Positions 7,350-59,447 of a DNA stretch of 64,000 nt are shown piece after piece. A program made the position numbers and the translations under genes. The notes under the pieces were generated by a model. The model saw only the letters and a list, made by a program, of their open reading frames with translations, was not told where the DNA came from and made no database searches. The stretch is from an uncultured Myxococcales bacterium. GTDB lineage: Bacteria; Myxococcota_A; UBA9042. Within the stretch, counting starts at the first letter, position 1, and each line of letters begins with the position of its first letter. The stretch covers positions 2,833 to 66,832 of the forward strand of contig CAISBR010000081.1 in the NCBI GenBank assembly GCA_903883645.1. Direction: 5' to 3'.

Positions 7350-7715
7350 CTACTTCAGCAGTTCGTTCTCGATGATGTCGCGGTGGTACAGCGAGCCGCG
7401 AAAGCCGATGACGCGCTCGACCTCGGCGCCGCTCTTAAAGTAGACCACCGTAGGCGTCGACTGCACGCCCAGCTGGCTGCAGATGCGCGGCGCCGTCTCG
7501 ATGTTGGCCTCGCACACCTTGACCTTGCCATCAAAGTCCTTGGCAAGATTTAGGATCACTGCCTCAAGCTGGCGGCACGGCGCGCAGGTCGAGCTCCAAA
7601 AATCGACCAACACCGGCCGGTCACTGCGCAGCACCTCTTGCTGAAAGTTGCTGTCGTCGAGCCGCAGCGGCATCGGCGCCGGCTTGCCCCCTAGCAGATT
7701 ACTCAACCACCCCAT
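7350..7715 (-). CDS. Thioredoxin
   Basis: The WSSTCAPC active site and thioredoxin fold run from the internal Met (MGWLSNLL...). The sequence AAGGGGA lies 6 nt upstream of that ATG. The listed ORF start at 7829 is probably a 5' extension. Confidence 0.85.
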   Translation of the reverse strand: MGWLSNLLGGKPAPMPLRLDDSNFQQEVLRSDRPVLVDFWSSTCAPCRQLEAVILNLAKDFDGKVKVCEANIETAPRICSQLGVQSTPTVVYFKSGAEVERVIGFRGSLYHRDIIENELLK

Positions 7716-7858
7716 CGCGTTCCCCTTTGCAGCTGGCCGCCGCACTATTTTGTGCAGCGGACGTACGAGCCTGATCAACAGTGCTGGATTCGCCCCCAGC
7801 TGCGCGAGTATGCTGCGCCGCGAGCCCAACGCACAGAGTGGCTCACTTCGGAGGCAGC

Positions 7859-9142
7859 GTGCGCATCGTCTGGTTGGCCGTAATTCTTTTGGCAGCGTGC
7901 GGAGATCCGACCCTCAGCACCACTACGCTGGGCGCAGACTCGTCGAAAAATAGCGACACCGCGAGCCTCGACGGCGCTGGCGATGCGGGCAACGATGGAT
8001 TGCAAGCCCCCGATACACAAGCAGAAGATCTCGGCGCACCCGATGCCGCTGTCCAAGACGATGCTCCACAAGACGTTGCCGCTCAAGATGTTGCACCACT
8101 CGATACAGCTCCAGCCGATGCAGCTCTGGCCGATACTGGCGTGCCCGATACGTCGCTCGCCGATACAGCTGATGTCGCGGCAGACGTTCAAACCGATACA
8201 ACTGTTGATTCTTCAAGCGATGCAGGCAAGCCGGCTGTCTCGACCGTCACCGGCGGCCACTGCGACGCGCCCTTTGCCCTGCCGGCCACCCAGCCCTGGA
8301 AACACAACATCGCCACCCCGCTCGTCACCATCCAGGGCGGGCCCAACCATCGAATTCGCGATGTGATCTTGCCCCTTGGCAGCGCCGGCCAGCTGCGCGG
8401 CCACTTCACCTACGGCACCCTCGACAGCGATCTGGGCGACGAAACCGTCGAGCTATGGGTTCAGACCTGTCCCGGCTGGGTCAAGTGGGGCGCGGCACAG
8501 ACCGATAGCAATGGTTACGTATACTTCGACGTGCCCAGCAGCCTGCCCGCCGGCGACTACCGCGTCAAGATCGTGGTGCTGGGCGATCAAACCGTGGCCG
8601 ACGGCATGATCGCAGCCTGGCCCGCCGGCATGCAGGTGATCGTCACCGATATTGACGGCACGCTGACCACCAGCGACTGGCAGGCCGTGCAAGACATCAT
8701 TTTCGGCGCCTCGGCCGAGATGTATCCCGATGCCAACACCGCCATTCAGCAGTTTGGCAAGAAGGACTATCGCATGGTGTACCTGACCGGCCGGCCCGAG
8801 CTCGTCACCCGCTACTCGCGCAACTGGCTGATGGACCACGACTTTCCGCTAGGCACCGTGCACGTAACCGACGACATTGCCCAGACCATGCCCACCGAGG
8901 CCGGCGTGCAAAAGTTCAAGGCCGACTTCTTGGCCGGTCTGCAAAGCACCGTAAAGCTGCAGCTGATCGCCGGCTTTGGCAACGCCACCACCGACATTGG
9001 CGCGTATTACGCGGTAAACCTGCCTAAAGACAAGGTGTTCATCATCGGCACCAATGCGGGCGCCAACGGCTCCACACCGATCATCAGCTACACCGCCCTG
9101 CTGCCGCAGCTGTACTCGTGGCCGGCGGCGAGCCAGCCCTAG
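7859..9142 (+). CDS. Lipoprotein with a C-terminal LNS2 (lipin/Ned1/Smp2) HAD-type phosphatase domain
   Basis: GTG start at 7859 preceded by GGAGG. The signal and lipobox are VRIVWLAVILLAAC|GD. A low-complexity D/A/P-rich linker follows. The C-terminus carries a DIDGTLT catalytic motif followed by YRMVYLTGRPELVTRYSRNWL, the LNS2 pattern. Confidence 0.65.
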   Translation: MRIVWLAVILLAACGDPTLSTTTLGADSSKNSDTASLDGAGDAGNDGLQAPDTQAEDLGAPDAAVQDDAPQDVAAQDVAPLDTAPADAALADTGVPDTSLADTADVAADVQTDTTVDSSSDAGKPAVSTVTGGHCDAPFALPATQPWKHNIATPLVTIQGGPNHRIRDVILPLGSAGQLRGHFTYGTLDSDLGDETVELWVQTCPGWVKWGAAQTDSNGYVYFDVPSSLPAGDYRVKIVVLGDQTVADGMIAAWPAGMQVIVTDIDGTLTTSDWQAVQDIIFGASAEMYPDANTAIQQFGKKDYRMVYLTGRPELVTRYSRNWLMDHDFPLGTVHVTDDIAQTMPTEAGVQKFKADFLAGLQSTVKLQLIAGFGNATTDIGAYYAVNLPKDKVFIIGTNAGANGSTPIISYTALLPQLYSWPAASQP

Positions 9143-10205: not shown

Positions 10206-11054
10206 ATGAACAGGCGTATTTTCTTGCTAGTCCCGTGGCTTCTACTGGCCAACTTGTCCGCTTGCTCCGACTCCGCCGTTGCCCCTACCTTGACGTTTGG
10301 CAGCGCGGGCACGGCAGACGGCGGCAGCGATGCGCTGGCCGGTTCAGATACCGCAGGCGACAGCGCCGCCTTCGACACCAGTGACGCAGCGACCCCCGCC
10401 GCCGACACAACTCTCGACGATTCTTCAGGTTCTGACGCTGGGGCCGACAGCAATCCCCCGGCCGACGTCGCTCCGACAGACACGGCCCCAGCCGACGCAC
10501 TGGTCGCCGATAGTGCGCTTGCAGATGCAGACCTACTCGATAGCGTGCCAGCCGACGCCGCAGTGGCCGATGCTGCTGTGCCCGACGTCACCACACCCGA
10601 CTCGGCGGCGCCCGACACAGCAGTGCCCGACACAGCAGCGCCCGACACAACGGTGCCCGACACAGCAGCGCCCGACATTGCCCCGCCAACCGACACCAAG
10701 CCGGGCACCGTCTGCGGCAACGGCACCTGTGAACCGGGCGAATCAACAAGCAATTGCCAGGCCGACTGCAAGGGTGGCAGCAACACCTGGACCTGTGGCG
10801 ACGGCGCGTGCGACATCGGCGAGCAGATCTACTGCGCCAAGGACTGCAAGATCGACCCGGCCACCTGCGTCAAAGATCAGTGCCCCGCCGAGCTGGCCGC
10901 GTGCCTAACCAACACCGTGTGCACGCAAGTCTGGGTGTGCGCCCAAAAGTGCACGAGCAACAGCTGCGTCCAGGGCTGTGTGCCGTTTGGCACGACCGTC
11001 GACCCCACCTTGCTGGCGATCTACAACTGCGCGCAAAAACACACTTGTTTGTAG
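10206..11054 (+). CDS. Secreted Cys-rich lipoprotein: D/A/P-rich low-complexity linker plus C-terminal Cys-rich domain
   Basis: Signal and lipobox MNRRIFLLVPWLLLANLSAC. Repeated (A)PDT(A/T)VPDTA motifs. The C-terminal 120 aa carry about 20 Cys (CGNGTCEPGES...CKGGSNTWTCGDGACD...). Confidence 0.6.
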   Translation: MNRRIFLLVPWLLLANLSACSDSAVAPTLTFGSAGTADGGSDALAGSDTAGDSAAFDTSDAATPAADTTLDDSSGSDAGADSNPPADVAPTDTAPADALVADSALADADLLDSVPADAAVADAAVPDVTTPDSAAPDTAVPDTAAPDTTVPDTAAPDIAPPTDTKPGTVCGNGTCEPGESTSNCQADCKGGSNTWTCGDGACDIGEQIYCAKDCKIDPATCVKDQCPAELAACLTNTVCTQVWVCAQKCTSNSCVQGCVPFGTTVDPTLLAIYNCAQKHTCL

Positions 11055-11061
11055 GTATTGG

Positions 11062-14046
11062 CTACAGGCAGCAGACAGAGCAGGTGTTGGTGACCGACTC
11101 CATGCCGTTTGAGGTGCCGCTGGTGGCCGTGGCTTTGTGCCGCATGAGCCGGGTGTCGTAGCCGCTCGCCCAGATCTGCGTGGCCACGGCGCTGTCGTCG
11201 ATGCAGAGGGTCTTGCCGTGTACTTGCGGGCCGTTATAGGCCTCGACGCCGCCGATGTGACCCGAGTAGGCCGTGCTGTAGCCCGCAGCGCAGGCCGTCG
11301 AGCCCAAGCTGGTATAGCAGCCGCCGGTGCAGCAAATGGCACAATTATTCGGCACTTCTTGCATGCCGTTCGAGCTGTCTTGGGCGCGCATCAAGCGGTT
11401 ATTAAAGCCGCTCGCCCACGCAGTCTTGGTGGCCGCGCCAGTGGTGACGCACTCTAGGTTGCCGTGCATGGTGCCGCCGCCCGTTTGGTAGTTCTCCAAG
11501 CCGCCAGGCCGCCCGGTGACCACCGCAGTAAAGCCAGACGCGCAACTGGTGCTGCCCCAGTGCGTGTAGCACGAACCGGCGTTGGGGTGGCTGTGGTCCG
11601 AACGCGAGGCGGTGACTGCCGAACCGCTGCCGGCAAAGTTGACCGCAACGGTGCCACTGGTGGTAATTGTGCCACCCGACAGGCCCGTGCCTGCGACAAT
11701 CGACGTGACCGTGCCGCCCGAGTTCGCGTCGGCGCTGCAGGTGACCGCACCCGTGGCACTGATGCCAAGGACATGCTGCCCAGACGGGCACGCCTGGTTC
11801 GATATGGCGAAATTGCTTCCTGAATAGGTGGTATTGGCATCGGCCGCGCACGAGACTACGCCGCTCGCGTTGATGCCGCTGACGTACTGCCCGGCGGGGC
11901 AGCCCTGGTTCGAAACCGCAAAGTTTGTGCCCGAGTACGTAGTGTTGGCGTCGCCGGCGCAGGTGACCACACCGCTCGCGTTGATGCCGCTCACATACTG
12001 GCCGCCCGGGCAACTCTGCGCCGATGTGGCGAAATTCGCGCCCGAGTAGGTCGTGTCTTTGTCGGCAGTGCACGTGGGCTTGCCGGTGGCGTCGATGCCG
12101 AGCATGTGCTGGCCCGAGGCGCAAGTCTGGTTCGATAAAGCGAAATTGCTGCCCGAGTAGCTGTTATTGGCGTCGGCGGCACAGGTCACTGCACCGCTGG
12201 CGTTGATGCCCGTGACCACTTGGCCCGACGCGCAAGCCTGGCTGCTGACTGCGAAATTGGCACCCGAGTAGCTGTTGTTGGCGTCGGCGGCGCAGGTGAC
12301 CGCACCGCTGGCGTTGATGCCGCTCACATACTGGCCGCCCGGGCAACTCTGCGCCGATGTAGCGAAATTTGCCCCCGAGTAGGTCGTGTCTTTGTCGGCG
12401 GTGCACGTGGGCTTGCCGGTGGCGTCGATGCCGAGCATGTGCTGGCCCGAGGCGCAAGTCTGGTTCGACAAAGCGAAATTGCTGCCCGAGTAGCTGTTGT
12501 TCGCGTCGGTGGCACAGGTCACTGCACCGCTGGCGTTGATGCCCGTGACCACTTGGCCCGACGCGCAAGCCTGGCTGCTGACTGCGAAATTTGCCCCCGA
12601 GTAGGTGGTGTCTTTGTCGGCGGTGCAGGTGGGCTTGCCAGTGGCGTCGATGCCGAGCATGTGCTGGCCCGAGGCGCAAGTCTGGTTCGACAAAGCGAAA
12701 TTGCTGCCCGAGTAGCTGTTGTTCGCGTCGGCCGCGCAGCTTACTTTGCCGCTGCCGTCGATGCCGGTGACCACTTGGCCCGACGCGCAAGCCTGGCTGC
12801 TGACTGCAAAATTACTTCCTGTATATGTCGTGTCCTTGTCGACGGCGCACACGACGGCGCCGCTGGCCGAGATGGCGGTCGCGACCTGGCCGCTGGGGCA
12901 GGCTTGGCTCGCCAGCGCAAAATCCTTGCCGCTGTAGGTGGTATTGGCGTCGGCGGCGCACTGAGCTTTACCTGTACCATCAATGGCATACACCACTTGG
13001 CCGGGGGCACAGGCCTGGCCCGACACCGCAAAATCCTTGCCGCTGTACAGCGTGTCTTTATCGACCGCGCACACCACCTTGCCGCTGCCATCGACGCCGG
13101 TGGCGACTTGACCACTCGGGCAAGCCTGGTTGGATACAGCGAAATTCTTGCCGTCGTAATTAACCGGGGTGTTCTGGTCGGCCACGCAAGTAATCTTGCC
13201 GTCCGCGCCGATGGCCGCGATGATCTGACCGCTGGGGCACGTTTGACCCGAAAGCGCAAAGTTCTTGCCATCATACACACTCGGCGTGTTCTGATCGGCC
13301 ACACAGGTGAGCTTGCCGTCCGCGCCAATGGCCGCCACGATCTGGCCGCTGGGGCAGGTCTGACCCGAAAGCGCAAACGAATTACCATCGTACGTGGGCA
13401 AGTCTTGGCATGCCACCTTGCCGTTCGCATCCACGCCGACCACCGTCTGGCCTTTGCCACACGCCTGCCCCGTCGGCACCAACTGCGGCGTTCCCTTTAA
13501 ATCCGCGAAGTTGCCAGACGTTGCCACCGCAGCAAGCGAGGCACTTTTGGCATACGGCTGCAGCACTTCGGCGGCCAGCATGTCGGCATTCACACAACCC
13601 GAGCACTGCAGCGCCTGGGCCGACGACGCCACCTGCGCCCGCAGCGCATACGGCACCTGATGCAGCGCCAGCCGCGGCAATTCGGCCTCCGCGCCCACTT
13701 GCGCACTAACCCAGGTCGCCTGACCGCCGAAAAACACGGACTTATCCAGCGGGGTCTTGGCGCCAACCTGCACCGCAAACATGCCCTTGATGACCTTGAC
13801 CGCCGGATCGATATAGGTATATACCGCCTTGGTATCATTCACATTTTCGTAAAATCGTAGCGTCAGCGCGTAGTCACCGTCGGGCACCGGAAAGCCGGCG
13901 GCATTGGTCAAACGCCCCTGCAGCGCCAGTTGGTCCTCGACCGCCAGCGCCGGCAGCGCAACGGTCAGCCCGAGCAGCAGCGCCAGCCCCGCCAGCGCCC
14001 GCAGCCAGGTTTTCCCCATTGTTCTAGTGCGTTGCATCCTCATCAT
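11062..14046 (-). CDS. Large secreted repeat protein: N-terminal beta-rich domain, about 16 tandem 37-aa Cys-pair repeats (consensus YSGxNFAxSxQxCxSGQxxxGIxAxGxxTCxADxNT), then a duplicated Cys-rich C-terminal module
   Basis: Signal peptide MGKTWLRALAGLALLLGLTVALPALA. The repeat unit is 111 bp, and three-unit (333-bp) super-repeats are near-identical at DNA level. For example, the shadow ORFs 11991..12182 and 12324..12515 are offset by 333 bp and are nearly identical. The C-terminus holds two ~85-aa modules ending in CAICC and CSVCCL. The exact start is uncertain (candidate Met codons at 14019-14046). Confidence 0.7.
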   Translation of the reverse strand: MMRMQRTRTMGKTWLRALAGLALLLGLTVALPALAVEDQLALQGRLTNAAGFPVPDGDYALTLRFYENVNDTKAVYTYIDPAVKVIKGMFAVQVGAKTPLDKSVFFGGQATWVSAQVGAEAELPRLALHQVPYALRAQVASSAQALQCSGCVNADMLAAEVLQPYAKSASLAAVATSGNFADLKGTPQLVPTGQACGKGQTVVGVDANGKVACQDLPTYDGNSFALSGQTCPSGQIVAAIGADGKLTCVADQNTPSVYDGKNFALSGQTCPSGQIIAAIGADGKITCVADQNTPVNYDGKNFAVSNQACPSGQVATGVDGSGKVVCAVDKDTLYSGKDFAVSGQACAPGQVVYAIDGTGKAQCAADANTTYSGKDFALASQACPSGQVATAISASGAVVCAVDKDTTYTGSNFAVSSQACASGQVVTGIDGSGKVSCAADANNSYSGSNFALSNQTCASGQHMLGIDATGKPTCTADKDTTYSGANFAVSSQACASGQVVTGINASGAVTCATDANNSYSGSNFALSNQTCASGQHMLGIDATGKPTCTADKDTTYSGANFATSAQSCPGGQYVSGINASGAVTCAADANNSYSGANFAVSSQACASGQVVTGINASGAVTCAADANNSYSGSNFALSNQTCASGQHMLGIDATGKPTCTADKDTTYSGANFATSAQSCPGGQYVSGINASGVVTCAGDANTTYSGTNFAVSNQGCPAGQYVSGINASGVVSCAADANTTYSGSNFAISNQACPSGQHVLGISATGAVTCSADANSGGTVTSIVAGTGLSGGTITTSGTVAVNFAGSGSAVTASRSDHSHPNAGSCYTHWGSTSCASGFTAVVTGRPGGLENYQTGGGTMHGNLECVTTGAATKTAWASGFNNRLMRAQDSSNGMQEVPNNCAICCTGGCYTSLGSTACAAGYSTAYSGHIGGVEAYNGPQVHGKTLCIDDSAVATQIWASGYDTRLMRHKATATSGTSNGMESVTNTCSVCCL
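11900..13300. repeat. Array of 111-bp coding tandem repeats organised as 333-bp near-identical super-repeats
   Basis: Derived from the periodicity of the translated 37-aa units and from duplicated shadow ORFs offset by 333 bp. Confidence 0.65.
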
Positions 14047-14072
14047 CCACCTCACATGGTGCGCCCAGTGCC

Positions 14073-16079
14073 CTAGGGCAACCAGGCCGCCAACCAGCGC
14101 AAAAGCCCCGTCCAGGTCGAATTGCCGTTGCCCGTCGCGTTGGCCGGCCCGATCGTCAGTGACTCGCCGCCCAGCTCGAGCCACGCCGCTTGATCTCCGA
14201 CTGCGGCCTGCCCCGCCAAGCCGGCAAAGCCGATCTCGAGCGCATTGGCCTTGCAGCCCTCGTCGGTAAAGCCGTCGCAGTCGTCGTCGACGCCATCGCA
14301 CGCTTCTACGCCGCTCGGCACGACCTCGCCGTCACATACCCCGAACTTTCCGTCTTTGCAGAGTTTCTTGCCATTATGGCATATCCCTACGCCGTCTGTA
14401 CCGTTGCCGCCGCTGTAGCAGTCGCTGGTAGCGGCATTGGGTAACCCCACGCAACCCTTGGCCGGGTCGCACGAATCGTCGGTGCACGGGTTACCATCGT
14501 CGCAAGACTGGCTAGCCGCGCCGGCCAAGCAGAGCGCACCGCCACCCGGGTCAGCCTCGCAGTGGTCGCCCACGCTGCACGCATCGCCATCGCTGCACGA
14601 CGCGCCGCTCAGCACGCTGTGCACGCAGCCGCCGCTTTGTTTGTCGCAGCTATCGCCGGTGCAGGGGTTGGCGTCGTTGCAACTCTTTAAGTCCGGATTC
14701 AGACACTTGCCCGTCGTGCCATCGCAATTATCGGCGGTGCAGGCGTTGTCGTCGACGCACGTCGCCTCGTCGCTTTTGCCGTTGCAGTCGTCGTCTTTGC
14801 CGTTACAGATCTCGATCTTGGCCAAGTTGCTGGTGGTGCACAGGGCGGTGATGATGGTCTGGCATTGCACGCTGCCCCCGGCGCACAGGCCGCTGCCGCA
14901 GGGCTGGCCCACGCCCACGGTGGCGCCGGTCGACAGTTCGACCACAAAGAAGTCTTCGTCGGTCAGGCCGTCGCAGTCGTCGTCTTCGTTGTTGCAGATC
15001 TCTTTCTTGGGCGTCGCGGCATCGGTGCAGACGAGCTGTCCGCCGCTTGTGCAGGTGGGCTTGCCGGGGCACTTGCCCAAAATCATCTTACAGATCAATG
15101 CGTCGCAACCCTCACCGCTCAGGCAGTCGCCGTCTTGTTCGCAGGCCTTGCCGCTGCCGCCGGCTTGGTAGGCGGTCTTAAAGCAGGTCGCGTCGGGCGC
15201 CAAGTTGTCGATCTTGCCGTCGCAGTTGTCGTCTTCGGCGTTGCACTCTTCGGCCTTGGCTACCTTGCCGCTGCACGCACTCAGGCCGTCGGGGCCGCAC
15301 GAGCGCGAACCGCCGCACATTCCGAAACTATTGACGATCTGGCAATCGGTGCTGAGGCCCGACTGCTTGCCCCAGGTGGTACAGGTGCACAGCGCCGCCG
15401 CAGCTTTCAAGCGGCATTGCTTGCTTTGCGACGCCCCGTCTTTCTGGTCGACGCAGCCGTAGCCATCGGGGCAGTCGCCGTCACTGGCGCAGGTGGCGCC
15501 ACAGAACTTGCCGTCGACAGCATAGTCTAGACACCAAGCGGTCTTATCGCCCCCTACTTGGCAGTCACTGTGCGCTTTGCACGGCGAGCAGAGCGAGACC
15601 TGCTTGGGCAAGCACATCGACACGGGGTCGACCGCGCCGTAGAGCTGGCACTCCCAGCCGATCGGGCAAGTCGATGCGCCGCCACAGGTTTTGCTGCACT
15701 GCTTGCCGTTGGCGGTGGTTATGCACGCGCCCGAGTCGCACTGAGTGTCTTGCGTGCAGGTGCAGAACGGTCCGCCCGGGCACTCGCCGCTGCCCACGTC
15801 GCCCAGGGTGTCGCTGCCCGAGTCGCCGAAGCTGTCGCTGCCCGTGGCGTCCGTTCCTTCATCGAAGTCGTACACATCGGTCTGGGCATCGGGGGGCGCG
15901 GCCAAGTCATTGCTGGTCACGTCGGGCGCGATATCGGTCGGCGCTGCCACCGTGCCCGTCGAGTCGTTGCTGCAAGCAGCTGTCAACAAAGCACAAATCA
16001 ATACGAGCGTGCCGGCGCGCAGCGTCAACACGGCGGCGGGTCGTGGCGTGCGACTCGGGGTTGCAATGGGGCAATGCAT
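14073..16079 (-). CDS. Cys-rich secreted lipoprotein with MopE-type putative metal-binding motifs (CNxEDDNCDG..D, CNNEDDDCDGLTDE, CNGKDDDCNGKSDE, CDGVDDDCDGFTDE)
   Basis: The ORF track protein from Met100 (MHCPIATPSRT...LVLICALLTAAC|SND) carries a lipobox. About 90 Cys are present. It contains four copies of the myxobacterial putative metal-binding motif plus CxxDxxxC modules. The stop lies just before the start of the repeat protein gene. Confidence 0.65.
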   Translation of the reverse strand: MHCPIATPSRTPRPAAVLTLRAGTLVLICALLTAACSNDSTGTVAAPTDIAPDVTSNDLAAPPDAQTDVYDFDEGTDATGSDSFGDSGSDTLGDVGSGECPGGPFCTCTQDTQCDSGACITTANGKQCSKTCGGASTCPIGWECQLYGAVDPVSMCLPKQVSLCSPCKAHSDCQVGGDKTAWCLDYAVDGKFCGATCASDGDCPDGYGCVDQKDGASQSKQCRLKAAAALCTCTTWGKQSGLSTDCQIVNSFGMCGGSRSCGPDGLSACSGKVAKAEECNAEDDNCDGKIDNLAPDATCFKTAYQAGGSGKACEQDGDCLSGEGCDALICKMILGKCPGKPTCTSGGQLVCTDAATPKKEICNNEDDDCDGLTDEDFFVVELSTGATVGVGQPCGSGLCAGGSVQCQTIITALCTTSNLAKIEICNGKDDDCNGKSDEATCVDDNACTADNCDGTTGKCLNPDLKSCNDANPCTGDSCDKQSGGCVHSVLSGASCSDGDACSVGDHCEADPGGGALCLAGAASQSCDDGNPCTDDSCDPAKGCVGLPNAATSDCYSGGNGTDGVGICHNGKKLCKDGKFGVCDGEVVPSGVEACDGVDDDCDGFTDEGCKANALEIGFAGLAGQAAVGDQAAWLELGGESLTIGPANATGNGNSTWTGLLRWLAAWLP

Positions 16080-55778: not shown

Positions 55779-58700
55779 CTACGGGCAAAGATTGGCATAG
55801 CCCGGTGTGCCGCGATCGCGCGCGCCGCAGCGGCTCTGGACGGCAAACAGGTCGTATTTCCACAAGACCTTGCTGCCATCTTGCACCGCCGTCATCGGCT
55901 GACACACGGTGGGCGCGGGGCAGTCGCTCGCCGATGCACAAGGTGGCGGGTCGGTGGCGTACGTCGATGCGCCCATGTACAGGCCGTAGCCGCAGGTCGG
56001 TCCGGCCGCAAGCCAGCACTCGGGCTTGTCGTTGTCGGCTGGCGTCAAGCAGGTGGGCGACAGCATCGCCGAGTTCCCCAGGCCCCACGGCAGCTTGCCG
56101 GCATTCACCTCGTCGACCACCGCCCCCGCAGTGTTGACGAGCTGCAGCTTCCAATCCAAGTGGATGTTCTTCAACTGAAACAGCCCTGCCGTTGCCATAT
56201 CGATCCAGGCGTACACGGGCTTCAAGTTGTTGTTTTGCGCCGGGTCTGCCACCGCGAGCAGCAGCGCGTACGACTTGGCCGGCACCACCGGCGGGTTGGC
56301 GACGTTCGGCCCGCCCGCCGTCACAACATGGCTATATACGTCTGAAACCAGCTTCCAACCGGTCAGGTCGATGGTCTCGCTGGTTGGGTTATACACCTCA
56401 AACCACTCGCCCTTGCTGTCGATGACCGCATCGGGGTCGACCATCACTTCGCTAATCACCAGCGTGCCCTTGGGCTGCGGCGGCGCTTCTTTCTTGCACT
56501 GACCCGAGCAGCCGTCGCCATCGGTCTGGTTGCCGTCGTCGCATTCCTCGCCAATGGCCGCAGTGATGAGGCCGTCGCCGCACTTGGGCGCAGGCTTGCA
56601 CTGGCCGCCGACGCAGATCAGGTCGGTGCCGCACGCTGTATTGTCGGCTTGGCCCTCGCACGGGTTGATGCACGGCGGATTGGCCTGCCCAGGTGAGCCA
56701 AAGTCGCCCGCACCGTAAGCAGCCTTGCCTTCGCACCAATTCTTGGCATCGTCGTTCTTGGCAGGGTCGTAGGCTGACGGATCGAGCTGCATCGACTTGC
56801 CCTCGACCACGGGGAACTGCGTCGCACAGCTGCCGGGGGGCCCTGGCGCATAGCAAGCCGCCTGCTTCGGAATGTACGTCACTCCGTCGATCGTCTTGCC
56901 ATTCCAGTCCAAAACCACATCGTCGCCCGTGATATTGCCCAGCGAAAACGGCGACGGCGGAGCGGTGAACCAACCTACTTGCGTCGGCGCGCCGCCATTG
57001 AGCAGCTTGTCCGCCGAGCCGCCCACCACAAAGTAGCTGCCGGGCGCGATCCAGAGTGGCTTGGGCGACGACAGCACAAACTTGTTGGTACCGTTGTCGC
57101 GCAATACCCACCCGTTGATGTCGACCGGCAGGTCGCCGGGATTGAACAACTCAACCCACTCGCCATACTCGTCGCCCACCGCCTTGGGATTCGCCATAAT
57201 TTCAGTAACTAGAACTTGCCCGGCAACAAAATTCTCTTTTTGGCAGTTCAGCGAGCAGCCATCGCCGCCCGAGGTGTTGCTGTCGTCACAAGTCTCGGCG
57301 GCTTCAACAGTGCCGTTGCCGCAAGTCGGCGAGTCGCAGCCGTCGCCCAGTCCATCGCCATCGCTGTCGATTTGCGTCGGGTTGGGCGTGCCGGGGCAGT
57401 TGTCACACACATCGCCCACGCCGTCGCCGTCCATGTCGCCCTGCTTGGGATTGGCCACTTTCGGGCACACATCGCACGCATCGCCCAGCTTGTCGCCGTC
57501 GCTGTCGGTCTGGCCCAAATTGCCTACAAACGGGCAGTTGTCGATCTCGTTGAGCACCGCATCGCCGTCTTGGTCCTGACCGGCAGGCGTGCAAGTGGGG
57601 TTGGGCTGGCCAGGGCTGCCAAAGTTGCCCGGCACGCCGCTAATCGCCGTCGACGAGTAGCACCAGTACACCAGCTTGTCGTTCTGCAGCGTCGTCGCAT
57701 AGCTGGGGTCGAGCTGCAGCGAAATGTTGGTCTTGACCGGGGGGGTATTCAGGCCATAAGCTAGGATATCCACGATCTTTTTACCCGGCACATCGACAAT
57801 TGTCAGGGTATCGCTCGTCGGGTCGAGCAAGAACTCCGCGCCCGGCTTGTTAAAGGCGTACTGCGCATTCACATTGCCATTTAGCGCCTTGTTGTTATTC
57901 GCCGCCAACACCACAAAGCCCTTGGCCGGCACGATGACCGTATCGGTAATCACATGCGTCTTAGGCTTGCCGGCGACACCATTCTTTACCTGCAGTTGCC
58001 AGCCCTTAATCGGCACCGGCGCGCCCGTATTGTTGTACAGCTCGAACCACTGCCCCGTGGCGTCGTCGATGTTGTCGCCGTGGGGCACAATTTCGTTGAT
58101 CACCAAGTTGCCGGGCAAAGCTGCGCCGATCACGCATGCATCGCAGCCGTCGCCCACATAGTCATTGCCGTCGTCGCAGCTCTCGCCTAGGTCGAGCTCG
58201 CCGTCGCCGCAGATGGCCGGATCGCATGCATCGCCTTTGCCGTCCTTATCGGCATCAGCCTGGTCAGGATTGGGCTCGGCCGCGCAGTTGTCGCAAGCAT
58301 CGCCCGCGCCATCGCCGTCGCTGTCTGGCTGCGAGCCGTCGGACTCGGCCGGGTCAAAGTTGTTCGGGCAGTCGTCCATCGAGTCGGGCACGCCATCTTG
58401 GTCCAAGTCGGGCGGCGCTGGGCAAGCTGGATTGGCCACGCCCGGCGTGCCGTAGTCGCCACTCGGCAGCTTGTTCGGCGAGGCGCAAAAACCCTTCCAG
58501 TCGTCGTTGCCAGTGGCCGAAGTCATGGTCACATCAAGGTTCAGTGCCGCGCCCTTCCAGTCGATGATCGGCCACGACTGCGTCCACGCCACCTTGTCGA
58601 GCACCACCGGCACGGCGTAATCGGCACGAATCAGCAGCGTATCCTTTAGGTTATTGAACGACGTGCTGGCATACACATAGTCGTACATGTTGCCGCCGTT

Positions 58701-59447
58701 GGTCGTCTTGTTGCCGTTGCGCCCCAGCACCTTGTATTCGCCGGGCTTGATCGTCAGCTTGCCCGTGCAGCCATTGATCACATGCTTGTCGGTGCCGCTG
58801 TCGTCGGTCATGGTCAGACCGTTTAAGTCGACGTCTTTGCTCGAATTATTCTTGACCTCAAACCATTCACCCGCATCGTCTTTGACGGCGAGCGGCCACA
58901 CCATGATCTCGGTAATCACCAAGTCGCCGGCCTTCAAGCTCTTCTGCGGCGCTGGCGCGGTCTTGGGCGGGGTGCATTTTTCGCCACACGTGCCGTCGGT
59001 TTGCAGCTCGTAGCCGATGTTGCAGTTGCACTGCGCCTTGTTATTCAACTTGGTACACAGGGTCTTGTTGGGGTCGGTGCACGGATTGGGCGTGCAGGGG
59101 TCGCTGCTCACGACTTCGCTCTTGGCGTCGCCGGTGTCGGTTTTGACGTCGCCCGTGTCGTCGCCTGAGCCGTCCGCGGCATCCGTGGTCACTTCCTCCG
59201 CGACGGAGTCCCAGCCGCTGTCGAGGCCGCTATCTTTGCCTACGTCTGGGCCGCCGCTCTGGGTGTCCGTTCCCCCCACGCTGACATCAAAGCCGGGGAA
59301 CACATAGCCACCCGCGTCCGCCGGCGAGGCCGTGTTGCTGCCGCAACCTGTGGCCAACACGAGCATGGCCAAGTTGGTCGCAGTAGCAGCCCATACCACC
59401 GCAAGGCGGTTGCGGAATCGGACGGCAGGTAGCAGCACGTGGGGCAT
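55779..59447 (-). CDS. Giant secreted lipoprotein: four lamin-tail (LTD) domains, thrombospondin type-3 Ca-binding repeats and Myxococcus cysteine-rich repeats
   Basis: Lipobox LVLATGC|GS. LTD signatures occur four times (LVITEIM...[15 protein letters not shown]...[15 protein letters not shown]...[15 protein letters not shown]...GEWFEVYN). TSP3-type DxDxDGxxDxxD runs are present. CGDGxxxxGExCDDGNxxxGDGCSxxC repeats occur three times. Confidence 0.8.

Follow-up and report, generated by a model that had tools for sequence, protein, structure and literature searches.

The window analysed here is a stretch of 64,000 nt of contig CAISBR010000081.1 (assembly GCA_903883645.1), which derives from an uncultured freshwater Myxococcota (Myxococcales) bacterium. 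Its minus strand carries a gene at positions 11062..14046 that we refer to as the fibre gene. In the ORF list, the open reading frame extends over 11062..14301 on the same strand; the ATG at 14046 or the one at 14019 may serve as start codon, the latter giving a protein of 986 aa, and the stop codon is found at 11062-11064. As stated in the initial annotation, the gene is flanked by two lipoprotein genes. A lipobox protein is encoded on the plus strand (10206-11054) and converges on the fibre gene, with the stop codons 7 bp apart, and a Cys-rich probable lipoprotein, to which Pfam assigns MopE/Dicty_CTDC repeats, is encoded upstream on the same strand as the fibre gene (14073..16079, minus), 27-54 bp from the fibre start. 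Further neighbours are housekeeping genes, including those for methylmalonyl-CoA mutase, a radical SAM protein, BamA/TamB and ClpB. A scan for promoters and terminators was uninformative, and the "terminators" that it reported are the repeat sequence of the gene itself.

The fibre protein starts with a putative Sec-type signal peptide, MGKTWLRALAGLALLLGLTVALPALA|VEDQ, which comprises aa 1-26 (13942..14019, minus strand), ends in ALPALA and was read by eye from the sequence letters rather than taken from a predictor. It is not followed by a lipobox cysteine, and the fibre protein itself is, contrary to what had been implied, not a lipoprotein. The earlier description as a secreted, surface-type and adhesin-like repeat protein is supported. 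After the signal peptide, a beta-rich domain (aa 27 to ~121) and a helical neck with a conserved CSGC motif (aa 139-142) are encoded at 13519..13941 on the minus strand. All further modules lie on this strand as well: a stalk of 16 tandem two-Cys units of 37-41 aa with a period of 111 bp (11722..13518), as supported by TRF, splitting of the protein and AF2; a connector module, SGGTVTSIVAGTGLSGG...FAGSGSAVTASRSDHSH, with an HxH motif at its end (11581..11721); and a tip with two subdomains of six cysteines each, supported by AF2 and profile matches, of which the first (aa 814-897, 11329..11580) ends in CAICC and the second (aa 898-985, 11065..11328) in CSVCCL. There is no collagen Gly-X-Y run in the window protein. 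A search of the whole protein against Pfam, NCBIfam and PADLOC-type libraries gave no match, PHROGs gave one weak match to a repeat unit, and an exact look-up, tried with both alternative starts, found no record. Within the 64-kb window, the fibre gene is the only match to the N-domain or the tip.

The N-terminal domain had been described as matching no nameable family, but it belongs to a very large one. A full HMMER scan with a joint profile of N-domain and tip matched 27,375 representatives at E<=1e-3; among the matches listed, about 40 match the tip, and nearly all of those below match the N-domain part. This family came to light only in the full scan, as a word-indexed homologue search had given a single match. 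The AF2 model of the domain reaches a pLDDT of 87-98 over the first ~100 residues, and Foldseek against the PDB returned weak Ig-like matches only, while sequence searches of the PDB with the N-terminal part, the tip and the tip-family profile returned nothing. When Pfam was applied to 88 N-domain relatives, the tips were found to include COLFI, Fibrinogen_C, P_proprotein, ALK_LTK_GRD (a TNF-like domain), Peptidase_S74, tail Collar and pectate lyase. Such a build is known from the MAT fibres, which were defined by a signal peptide, a conserved ~130-aa beta-rich N-domain that has no homologue in the PDB, a trimeric stalk and a swapped tip, and the members listed include Myxococcales and Bradymonadaceae (PMC10769870). 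The PDB entries of Bdellovibrio MATs cover C-terminal fragments only. The fibre protein agrees with this definition at both ends, as the signal peptide is followed by the confidently modelled beta domain of a very large family, and as the tips of syntenic cassettes vary between type-1 NC1-like, type-2 spongin-like, tail-collar, fibrinogen-like and unknown ones. The assignment to the MAT type is one of architecture. In our view, the product of the gene is fairly likely to be a modular and probably trimeric fibre of the cell surface, with the build of the Bdellovibrio MAT fibres.

Splitting of the protein places the 16 two-Cys units at aa 168-766 (11722-13518), with 13 of them exactly 37 aa long, and TRF detected periods of 111, 222 and 333 bp over 11722-12867 as well as a 117-bp pair at 13165-13377, so that the ~16 repeats with a 111-bp period given in the initial annotation are confirmed. 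Units 5-12 follow each other in the order A B A B C A B C and constitute the central part that was recently amplified or homogenised (11938..12825, minus strand), as seen in the identity matrix and the exact repeats. At the nucleotide level, A7 and A10 are 95.5% identical, the three B copies 95.5-98.2% and C9 and C12 91%, compared to ~57-70% for unrelated units. The longest stretches that recur exactly measure 91 bp at an offset of 222, 81 bp at an offset of 333 and 50 bp at an offset of 555. The blocks of three units are less uniform than the "almost base-for-base" repetition claimed before, since 17 mismatches separate the two 333-bp blocks (94.9% identity), and the shadow ORFs at 11991-12182 and 12324-12515, said to be identical over 60 aa, differ at 8 nt and in their translations. 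When the first five units were modelled by AF2, every unit formed one hairpin (pLDDT ~80-90), joined by linkers with a pLDDT of ~50, and the pTM was 0.38; each two-Cys unit is thus predicted to be a beta-hairpin that is bracketed by its Cys pair. The unit also occurs in 49 of the 154 retrieved proteins, mostly N-domain relatives, with 1-10 copies each, and is a recurrent stalk module of the N-domain fibre family.

At the protein level, the central units are 92-100% identical to each other, and their identity to units of the syntenic orthologues L006 and L007 does not exceed 81%. The N-proximal units have positional orthologues, whereas the central core has no counterpart in either of the two. 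This bears out the earlier view of a recently expanded or homogenised array, and the comparison indicates that each lineage has amplified or homogenised its central units recently and on its own. Related cassettes contain 1, 2, 5, 9, 11, 15 or 16 units. The designation as a contingency locus in the usual sense did not hold, as the unit is an in-frame one of 111 bp and neither the gene nor its upstream region was found to contain a homopolymer or short SSR; with such a unit, slippage would alter the length of the stalk and not switch expression. A further explanation is that the array, or at least the number of copies and the order of the A, B and C units, is an artefact of the assembly, in which strain variants were chained or repeats collapsed or expanded. 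The only same-species sequence, L005, which is an independent scaffold with 99-99.7% identity, contains a gap of 100 N at ~12122-12217 and has its mismatches to the window gene clustered in repeat units, and the contig of the closest genome orthologue terminates inside the array. As these two independent short-read assemblies break within the array, the caveat already attached to the exact copy number stands, but the repeats as such are not affected by it: only synonymous sites distinguish the three B copies, the frame is intact across 1.8 kb, and arrays of 9-15 units, each with near-identical central units of its own, were assembled in independent MAGs. Moreover, exact repeats of at most 91 bp can be bridged by ordinary paired reads, and we regard an artefact as a rather unlikely explanation.

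The cassette of MopE-like lipoprotein and fibre is found with other tips in related Myxococcota MAGs. L006 is syntenic with the window (methylmalonyl-CoA mutase, radical SAM, MopE-like and fibre genes), and L007 has at the same locus 15 units and the same connector start, followed by another tip. Spongin-like type-2 tips are present in L008 and L013, and a tail-collar tip in L018. Whatever the type of tip, the fibre gene of L006-L013 and L018 is immediately preceded on its strand by a gene for a full-length MopE-like homologue. The connector module also precedes different tips in P0003, P0004/5, P0008, P0011, P0053, P0056, P0078 and P0121. These cassettes show that tips are exchanged between otherwise orthologous loci. 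Searches for further relatives gave none with a tip-motif genome scan of 185,579 species representatives and none with a metagenome scan using the tip, and a metagenome scan with the N-domain gave distant cassettes only. Modular swapping of tips, the HxH motif, the tail-collar and S74 tips of relatives and the weak PHROG match could also fit a tail-fibre gene of a prophage or tailocin instead of a cellular surface fibre. The fibre locus, however, is a chromosomal context of uniform GC without any phage gene in 64 kb, its housekeeping surroundings are conserved in synteny across MAGs, and the protein begins with a Sec signal and has no viral structural match (BFVD). Prophage origin was rejected on the basis of this conserved housekeeping context, and a phage fibre is in our view hardly credible.

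The C-terminal part had been described as a duplicated Cys module of ~85 aa, and indeed its halves of 84-88 aa each are 42% identical (E 6e-24); the duplicated module defines a small family. It had likewise been held to match no nameable family. AF2 modelled the tip with a pLDDT of 91.3 and a pTM of 0.87, and among 350,542 PDB chains the best Foldseek match of this model, although a weak one, is the collagen IV NC1 hexamer 8txn (E 0.03, TM 0.24), followed by a second-best match with an E of 1.9. In collagen IV and spongin, NC1 is the module at the C-terminus that mediates trimerisation and network formation. In hhalign comparisons, the tip family aligned over its full length to an NC1 profile of animal spongins only (Prob 95.8, P 7.3e-9, 162 columns, identity ~25%), and it aligned to all type-2 tips with Prob 97.1 (P 5.8e-11); the type-2 tips in turn aligned to collagen IV NC1 with Prob 95 (P 2.6e-8), all from alignments of low diversity (Neff 2-3.6). 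The window tip alone matched the animal spongin HMM with an E of 2e-6. Controls with 40 column shuffles and reversed profiles, run on comparisons parallel to the animal-only spongin one, scored 11-24 against 57-61 for the real profiles, and real scores were 57-71 overall. Tip and spongin NC1 also share the layout of two subdomains, a WG...C(P/A)SG...G start and a C-x-x-C at the subdomain end, and in the tip the position of the HSQ motif is occupied by HWGS and SLGS.

A direct profile match between the tip family and collagen IV NC1 (7 PDB-verified sequences) was discarded, as its hhalign score of 17.7 (P 0.076) lies within the noise of the controls, and Pfam C4 (PF01413) did not match the fibre protein at E<=1. 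The link to collagen IV rests for this reason on spongin and the type-2 tips as intermediates. These two results, together with the low TM of the Foldseek match and the low Neff of the alignments, are what would be expected if the likeness between tip and NC1 had arisen by convergence or were due to the composition of small domains rich in Cys and Gly, without homology. The alignment, however, is collinear over the full length and scores far above shuffled or reversed profiles, the subdomain layout, the start and end motifs and the fusion to collagen repeats are held in common with the animal proteins, and NC1 is the top fold match in the whole PDB set, so that we judge convergence quite improbable. 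At the profile level, the tip can be shown to be a divergent spongin/collagen-IV NC1-like domain, and the alignments place it as a remote homologue of spongin NC1 and not as a close member. Type-2 tips from sister Myxococcota cassettes are 42-48% identical to animal spongin NC1. Animal contamination was rejected as a source of these spongin-like tips, as they are part of the cassette of MopE-like gene and N-domain on Myxococcota contigs, and as a crude NJ tree groups them in a clade of their own, apart from the animal sequences.

Collagen Gly-X-Y repeats fold only as trimers, and the HxH motif is typical of trimeric fibres such as T4 gp37. In several family members (P0007, which is encoded on a bacterial contig, P0009, P0014 and P0047) the tip directly follows Gly-X-Y repeats, so the tip probably trimerises, and by analogy with these collagen-fused relatives and from the HxH motif, the fibre is probably a trimer. 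The protein could alternatively be a monomeric, Cys-rich adhesin or matrix protein, in which independent two-Cys mini-domains are arranged like beads on a string and the C-terminal module is a Cys-knotted binding domain without a role in oligomerisation. The AF2 monomer fits this picture, with confident isolated hairpins, flexible linkers, a low pTM and a tip that folds confidently on its own. Neither the tips behind Gly-X-Y repeats nor the HxH motif at the end of the connector is explained by it, and every solved structure from the fibre family that the protein resembles is a trimer (PMC10769870). We therefore think that a monomer is unlikely.

For the trimeric fibre that we prefer, the following assembly can be envisaged. 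The protein would be exported by Sec, and the ~125-aa N-terminal beta domain would hold the fibre at the cell surface, as suggested by analogy; the co-conserved upstream Cys-rich lipoprotein may, speculatively, be its partner there. The sixteen disulfide-stapled beta-hairpin units would form a long, stiff stalk, the length of which could shift in whole units through recombination among the 111/222/333-bp repeats. The conserved connector with its terminal HxH motif would lead into the tip, which most likely nucleates and registers the trimer from the C-terminus, as in collagens, and which may also be the distal binding or contact surface. As tips are exchanged between cassettes, the tip presumably sets target specificity.

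Among known domains, the NC1 of spongin short-chain collagen (C4) and of collagen IV (PF01413) is closest to the tip, both being C-terminal and composed of two tandem homologous Cys-rich subdomains, which in the tip are predicted to be all-beta. With spongin NC1, the tip further shares the absence of the HSQ motif, the profile match over the full length and relatives that are fused after triple-helix repeats. It differs in its shorter subdomains (84-88 vs ~110 aa), an additional Cys pair (first residue and terminal CC) and its place after a Cys-hairpin stalk instead of collagen, and it is bacterial and below every Pfam threshold. The beta6-beta7 hairpin with its Cys bridge, by which NC1 trimers are clipped together (PMC6211539), is absent from the tip as well. 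The disulfides predicted for the tip are Cys2-Cys5 and Cys3-Cys4, which correspond to those of NC1, and additionally Cys1-Cys6. In the literature searched, NC1 is treated as confined to animals and one filasterean (10.1101/2021.10.08.463732; PMC5395295). It is conceivable, although we put the likelihood slightly short of even, that NC1 is an older and wider superfamily, that bacteria use NC1-type tips exchangeably on surface fibres and bacterial collagens, and that the window tip represents a compact, undescribed bacterial (and algal) "type 1" branch. If so, there would be a bacterial reservoir or origin for animal NC1, or an ancient transfer between domains of life, and bacterial fibres with NC1 tips might connect head-to-head and build networks like collagen IV. 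With bacterial NC1 homologues at hand on contigs that are verifiably bacterial, some ~45% identical to animal ones and some fused to collagen, the origin of this basement-membrane module becomes testable by structure and phylogeny.

Bacterial collagen-like proteins are comparable in that they form surface filaments with a globular terminal domain that nucleates the trimer and with a repeat number that varies between strains. The trimerisation folds are different, as BclA of Bacillus has a C1q-like C-terminal domain and Scl of Streptococcus an N-terminal V domain, and Gly-X-Y repeats are found only in some members of the family described here. Streptococcal alpha C/Rib and staphylococcal Sdr/Bap proteins similarly contain near-identical in-frame repeats of ~100-250 bp in a surface-protein gene, with a copy number driven by recombination. 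These are wall-anchored proteins of Gram-positive bacteria with an unrelated repeat fold, and strain-level variation is documented for them; the locus in the window offers a clean natural case of independent, lineage-specific amplification or homogenisation of in-frame repeats that would tune the length of a fibre. A close likeness is also seen to the MAT fibres of Bdellovibrio bacteriovorus and others (Caulton et al. 2024, PMC10769870), with which the protein shares the signal peptide, the beta-rich N-domain of ~125-130 aa, the long stalk, the exchanged C-terminal tip, relatives with S74, TNF-like, lectin-like and collagen-like tips, and the presence of the family in Myxococcales. Whereas the crystallised segments of MAT fibres are beta-helices or prisms, the stalk here would consist of disulfide-stapled 37-aa hairpins, and neither an NC1-like tip nor a conserved upstream lipoprotein partner is described for MATs. 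What appeared to be an orphan Cys protein can now be read as anchor, adjustable stalk, connector and exchangeable tip, and it would add a disulfide-stapled hairpin stalk module and a conserved lipoprotein partner to these recently defined MAT-type fibres.

The fibre gene lies on the minus strand within an ORF spanning 11062..14301, its likeliest start being the ATG at 14046 or 14019. From the ATG at 14019 the product has 986 aa, and its N-terminus, MGKTWLRALAGLALLLGLTVALPALA|VEDQ, has the sequence features of a Sec-type signal peptide and no lipobox cysteine. An N-terminal domain (N-domain), a stalk of two-Cys units, a connector and a tip follow in this order, and the 46 cysteines of the mature protein are distributed over a CSGC motif in the neck (2), the units (32) and the tip (12). 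The minus-strand gene order is mutase, radical-SAM, MopE/Dicty_CTDC Cys-rich probable lipoprotein (14073-16079, assigned by Pfam) and fibre gene, which begins 27-54 bp downstream of the latter. The large ORF beside the radical-SAM gene was named by reading its sequence, and we take it to be a methylmalonyl-CoA mutase. A lipobox protein gene on the plus strand (10206-11054) converges on the 3' end of the fibre gene, so that both neighbours described in the initial annotation are present. This convergent gene contains a 15-bp tandem repeat (10552-10677, 5-8 copies), which encodes an (A/V)PD(T/A)(A/T)-type low-complexity linker before a Cys-rich C-terminal domain. The surroundings are chromosomal (molybdopterin oxidoreductase, radical SAM/B12 protein, BamA/TamB homologues, ClpB), GC is uniform across the window (0.60-0.68), and no phage genes were found in its gene content. 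Elsewhere, the plus-strand gene at 7781-9142 encodes a protein with a signal-like hydrophobic segment at its N-terminus, then a long low-complexity region rich in Asp, Ala and Pro, and after it PITM beta-sandwich and LNS2 (lipin/Nir2-type) domains, a combination unusual in bacteria.

A scan of the genome collection with the N-domain returned 11 loci, according to their record titles largely from lake-water MAGs and mostly labelled Myxococcales or Myxococcota. One of these, L006 (Myxococcales MAG STS170223_bin_369), aligns collinearly with the window over the stretch between the mutase and the first repeats (76-81% nucleotide identity). The window accordingly stems from a related member of the Myxococcota. 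The pairing of the MopE-like gene with the fibre gene is conserved: in the related loci L006-L013 and L018 a full-length homologue (43-77% amino acid identity) immediately precedes the fibre gene in the same orientation, whatever the tip, and this probable lipoprotein of ~640-670 aa has that position in 9 of 14 related loci. It is a candidate for the fibre anchor or an assembly partner. In the syntenic locus L007 the N-domain, 15 units and the first part of the connector are retained, and an unrelated end domain of ~170 aa follows; further cassettes end in spongin-like (type-2) NC1 tips, a tail-collar domain (L018), a fibrinogen-like domain (L019) or unknown domains. The chassis is thus conserved, while the tip has been exchanged and the stalk length drifts. 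The GenBank titles of L008, L011 and L012 read 'Klebsiella pneumoniae' or 'Enterobacteriaceae', but as these contigs hold the Myxococcota-type cassette of MopE-like and fibre genes, they are probably mislabelled.

The repeat array had been described as ~16 tandem two-Cys repeats of 37 aa with a 111-bp period, which is borne out. With unit boundaries set by the Y-[SDT]-G motif plus two N-proximal variants, 16 units cover aa 168-766 (window 11722-13518), 13 of them exactly 37 aa long, with the consensus Y-S/T-G-x-N/D-F-A-x-S-x-Q-x-C-x-x-G-Q-x-V-x-G-I-x-x-x-G-x-x-x-C-x-x-D-x-D/N-T. Tandem Repeats Finder detects 111-, 222- and 333-bp periods across 11722-12867 and a 117-bp pair at 13165-13377. The 333-bp super-repeat therefore exists as a period, but it is not repeated almost base for base as claimed, since 17 mismatches separate the two 333-bp blocks (94.9% identity); likewise, the shadow ORFs thought to be identical differ at 8 nt and in their translations. 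The units numbered 5-12 (window 11938-12825) belong to three subtypes, in the order A B A B C A B C. At the nucleotide level A7 and A10 share 95.5% identity, the three B copies 95.5-98.2% and the two C copies 91%, compared with 57-70% for unrelated units. Exact repeats reach 91 bp at an offset of 222, 81 bp at an offset of 333 and 50 bp at an offset of 555. Only synonymous substitutions separate the three B copies, which argues for real, selected, distinct copies.

In an AF2 monomer model each unit folds into a hairpin of two strands flanked by its Cys pair (pLDDT ~80-90), and low-confidence linkers join one hairpin to the next (pTM 0.38). This model is compatible both with beads on a string and with a stalk that requires partner chains. 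At least one copy of the unit occurs in 49 of 154 retrieved proteins, mostly N-domain relatives; several of the 49 reach copy numbers of 5-10 with a shared flanking motif, and the highest number, 16, is that of the window protein. Judged from these sequences, the two-Cys unit is a recurrent stalk module of this N-domain family.

Comparison with the related loci supports the view that the array was recently expanded or homogenised, in its central part. The N-proximal units have positional orthologues in L006 with 65-85% amino acid identity, above that of any paralogous unit, whereas the central units are 92-100% identical among themselves and at most 81% identical to any unit of L006 or L007. 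Amplification was thus recent and lineage-specific, and blocks of 90-97% identical central units arose independently in L007, L013 and L009. Excluding three arrays that run off contig ends and L012, which has an N-gap inside its array, the unit number per cassette is 1 in L014, 2 in L015 and L018, 5 in L009, 9 in L008, 11 in L013, 15 in L007 and 16 in the window. As the 111-bp unit is in frame, changes in the array would alter stalk length and not expression. The locus therefore resembles length-variable repeat adhesins rather than the phase-variable contingency locus to which it had been likened. A long array certainly exists, but the count of 16 and the order of the central units are as assembled and provisional. 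An independent metagenome scaffold of the fibre gene, L005, is 99.0-99.7% identical to the window, with mismatches clustering in repeat units and a 100-N gap (L005 1167-1266) at window ~12122-12217, and the contig of L006, the closest genome orthologue, ends at 7351 after about nine units, which indicates that short-read assemblies fail there. The final ~30 bases of L005 diverge from the window, suggesting a chimeric scaffold end.

Stalk and tip are separated by the connector SGGTVTSIVAGTGLSGGTITTSGTVAVNFAGSGSAVTASRSDHSH. This module of ~45 aa, whose end is always [AS]-R-[SA]-D-H-x-H, is also found ahead of unrelated tips in eight further proteins among those retrieved, and P0121 contains eight copies of it. 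HxH motifs are typical of trimeric phage fibres such as T4 gp37, in which they coordinate metal ions on the three-fold axis. By analogy, we infer that the connector may be a trimeric-fibre feature.

The tip comprises the last 172 aa and consists of two tandem subdomains with 42% mutual identity (E 6e-24), each with six Cys, a start C-Y-T-x-(W/L)-G-S-T-x-C-A-x-G and an end C-x-x-C-C. About 40 clusters of a 1.84-billion-protein library carry this type-1 tip behind very different N-terminal parts: N-domain and two-Cys units (P0008, P0011, P0017), long Gly/Thr/Ser-rich stalks (P0021, P0028 and P0031 without an N-domain match, P0036 with an N-domain-like start) or coiled-coil-like stems. Most tellingly, in P0007, P0009, P0014 and P0047 an N-domain is followed by collagen Gly-X-Y repeats (Pfam Collagen) that abut the tip; the P0007 contig is bacterial, with DNA polymerase I and a LysR regulator as neighbours. 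A pelagophyte alga, Chrysophaeum taylorii (P0052, KAJ8598089.1), has the type-1 tip as well, and so do the eukaryote-looking proteins P0035, P0038 and P0055; P0035 combines two double modules with a Ser/Thr/Pro-rich region and a hydrophobic, TM-like stretch at its C-terminus. The AF2 model of the tip (33-sequence alignment) is confident and all-beta (pLDDT 91.3, pTM 0.87). Its best Foldseek match among 350,542 PDB chains is a Drosophila collagen IV NC1 hexamer (8txn_A, E 0.03; second-best match E 1.9), but with a low TM score of 0.24.

Direct profile-profile comparison of the tip family with collagen IV NC1, represented by seven sequences from PDB alignments, was not significant (score 17.7, P 0.076). 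The relationship is seen through the type-2 tips, found in the related Myxococcota cassettes L013 (4821-7244) and L008 (4113-6239), in P0045 and in further proteins (P0155-P0206), with the motifs CPSGW..GY, ECGSLxC and C-x-V-C. The type-2 sequences of L008, L013 and P0045 all gave sub-threshold matches to Pfam C4 (E 0.025-0.11), and phmmer against the PDB found collagen IV NC1 as best match (6mpx_A, E 0.0015; 1li1_A, E 0.073). With hhalign, type 2 and collagen IV NC1 align across 175 columns (Prob 95.2, P 2.6e-8), and the window's tip family aligns to type 2 over the full length (Prob 96.2, P 2.7e-9); 40 column shuffles score 13-15 +/- 3 (max 24) and reversed profiles 11-13, against 57-61 for the real profiles. 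A homologue search with the type-2 profile yielded 1,346 proteins, including animal 'short-chain collagen C4-like' proteins of sponge, cnidarians, amphioxus, starfish and octopus. These are spongin short-chain collagens, and type 2 matches their NC1 domains over 100% of the domain with 42-48% identity (E 1e-50 to 1e-55). Pfam's precomputed column lists them under PF01391 alone, so the C4 model misses the whole group. Bacterial matches include Ca. Venteria ishoeyi, Ca. Parabeggiatoa and many metagenomes, some with collagen repeats or a MAT-like N-domain (MAT, mosaic adhesive trimer). Animal contamination or very recent transfer is an unlikely source of the bacterial sequences, because they and the animal ones fall into separate clades in a crude NJ tree.

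It is accepted that spongins are variants of collagen IV; their NC1 domain has no HSQ motif (PMC5395295; 10.1101/2021.10.08.463732). The tip family aligns to ten animal spongin domains alone over 162 columns (Prob 95.8, P 7.3e-9), and the window's single tip sequence matches the animal spongin HMM (E 2e-6) and, by hhalign, the combined type-2 and spongin alignment (91%). We conclude from these profiles that the tip is probably a compact, divergent member of the spongin/collagen-IV NC1 superfamily, so that a C-terminal module at first assigned to no nameable family now has one. It stands outside Pfam C4, whose model it does not pass; it has neither the HSQ motif nor the beta6-beta7 clip hairpin with its Cys bridge known from NC1 (PMC6211539), and it carries an extra Cys pair of its own. 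The literature searched treats NC1 as confined to animals plus Ministeria (10.1101/2021.10.08.463732; PMC5395295), and we found no report of NC1-type domains in bacteria in it. UniRef has automatically named one bacterial protein 'Short-chain collagen C4', so the type-2 similarity is visible to annotation pipelines; the type-1 branch appears to be undescribed. A second window protein with eukaryote-ECM-like domains (55779-59447, minus strand; 1,222 aa) contains four lamin-tail domains, thrombospondin type-3 repeats and DUF4215.

The N-domain gave no match by Pfam, NCBIfam or PDB sequence search, but, contrary to the first impression, it belongs to a large family. A full HMMER scan of 1.84 billion representatives, with a profile of N-domain, connector and tip built from the window protein and its single full-architecture relative P0002, found 27,375 proteins (threshold E<=1e-3). 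Of these, about 40 are tip matches; the other matches listed cover the N-terminal ~130-200 positions of proteins of 150 to 1,500 aa. Among 88 N-domain proteins Pfam finds mosaic C-terminal domains, with COLFI in six, the proprotein-convertase P domain in six, fibrinogen C in four, and further IPT/TIG, ALK/LTK glycine-rich, shufflon N, Peptidase_S74, phage tail collar, discoidin and pectate lyase domains. COLFI (the fibrillar-collagen C-propeptide) and fibrinogen C are trimer-associated 'animal ECM' domains that occur here as bacterial fibre tips (P0037-P0135, alignment A4); L019 too has a fibrinogen-like end. AF2 models the N-domain confidently as beta structure (pLDDT 87-98), with a helical neck behind it, and Foldseek against the PDB returns weak Ig-like similarities at best. 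In the closest subfamily the neck carries a CxGC motif directly after the N-domain (aa 139-142, window 13594-13605), which is CSGC in the window protein and CTGC in several relatives; its residues C113, G115 and C116 do not vary in alignment A6. The motif might link chains by disulfides.

A fibre of this kind would be exported by Sec, with disulfides forming in the periplasm, and displayed at the cell surface by its N-domain, possibly through the upstream lipoprotein. The NC1-like tip could nucleate the trimer as in collagens, reinforced by the HxH connector, and the stalk would act as an adjustable spacer. The tip may offer a binding surface for prey, substrate or kin, or make head-to-head contacts like NC1 hexamers. 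The MAT fibres of Bdellovibrio have a ~130-aa beta-rich domain without PDB homologue directly after the signal peptide, a trimeric stalk and tips swapped in evolution, and members are known from Myxococcales, Bradymonadaceae and Bacteroidota, one of them 'collagen-like' (PMC10769870). The window protein shares this published architecture, and membership in the MAT type is supported by that likeness, not by an N-domain alignment. Compared with the MAT-type fibres, its stalk module, its tip and its partner gene are all new.
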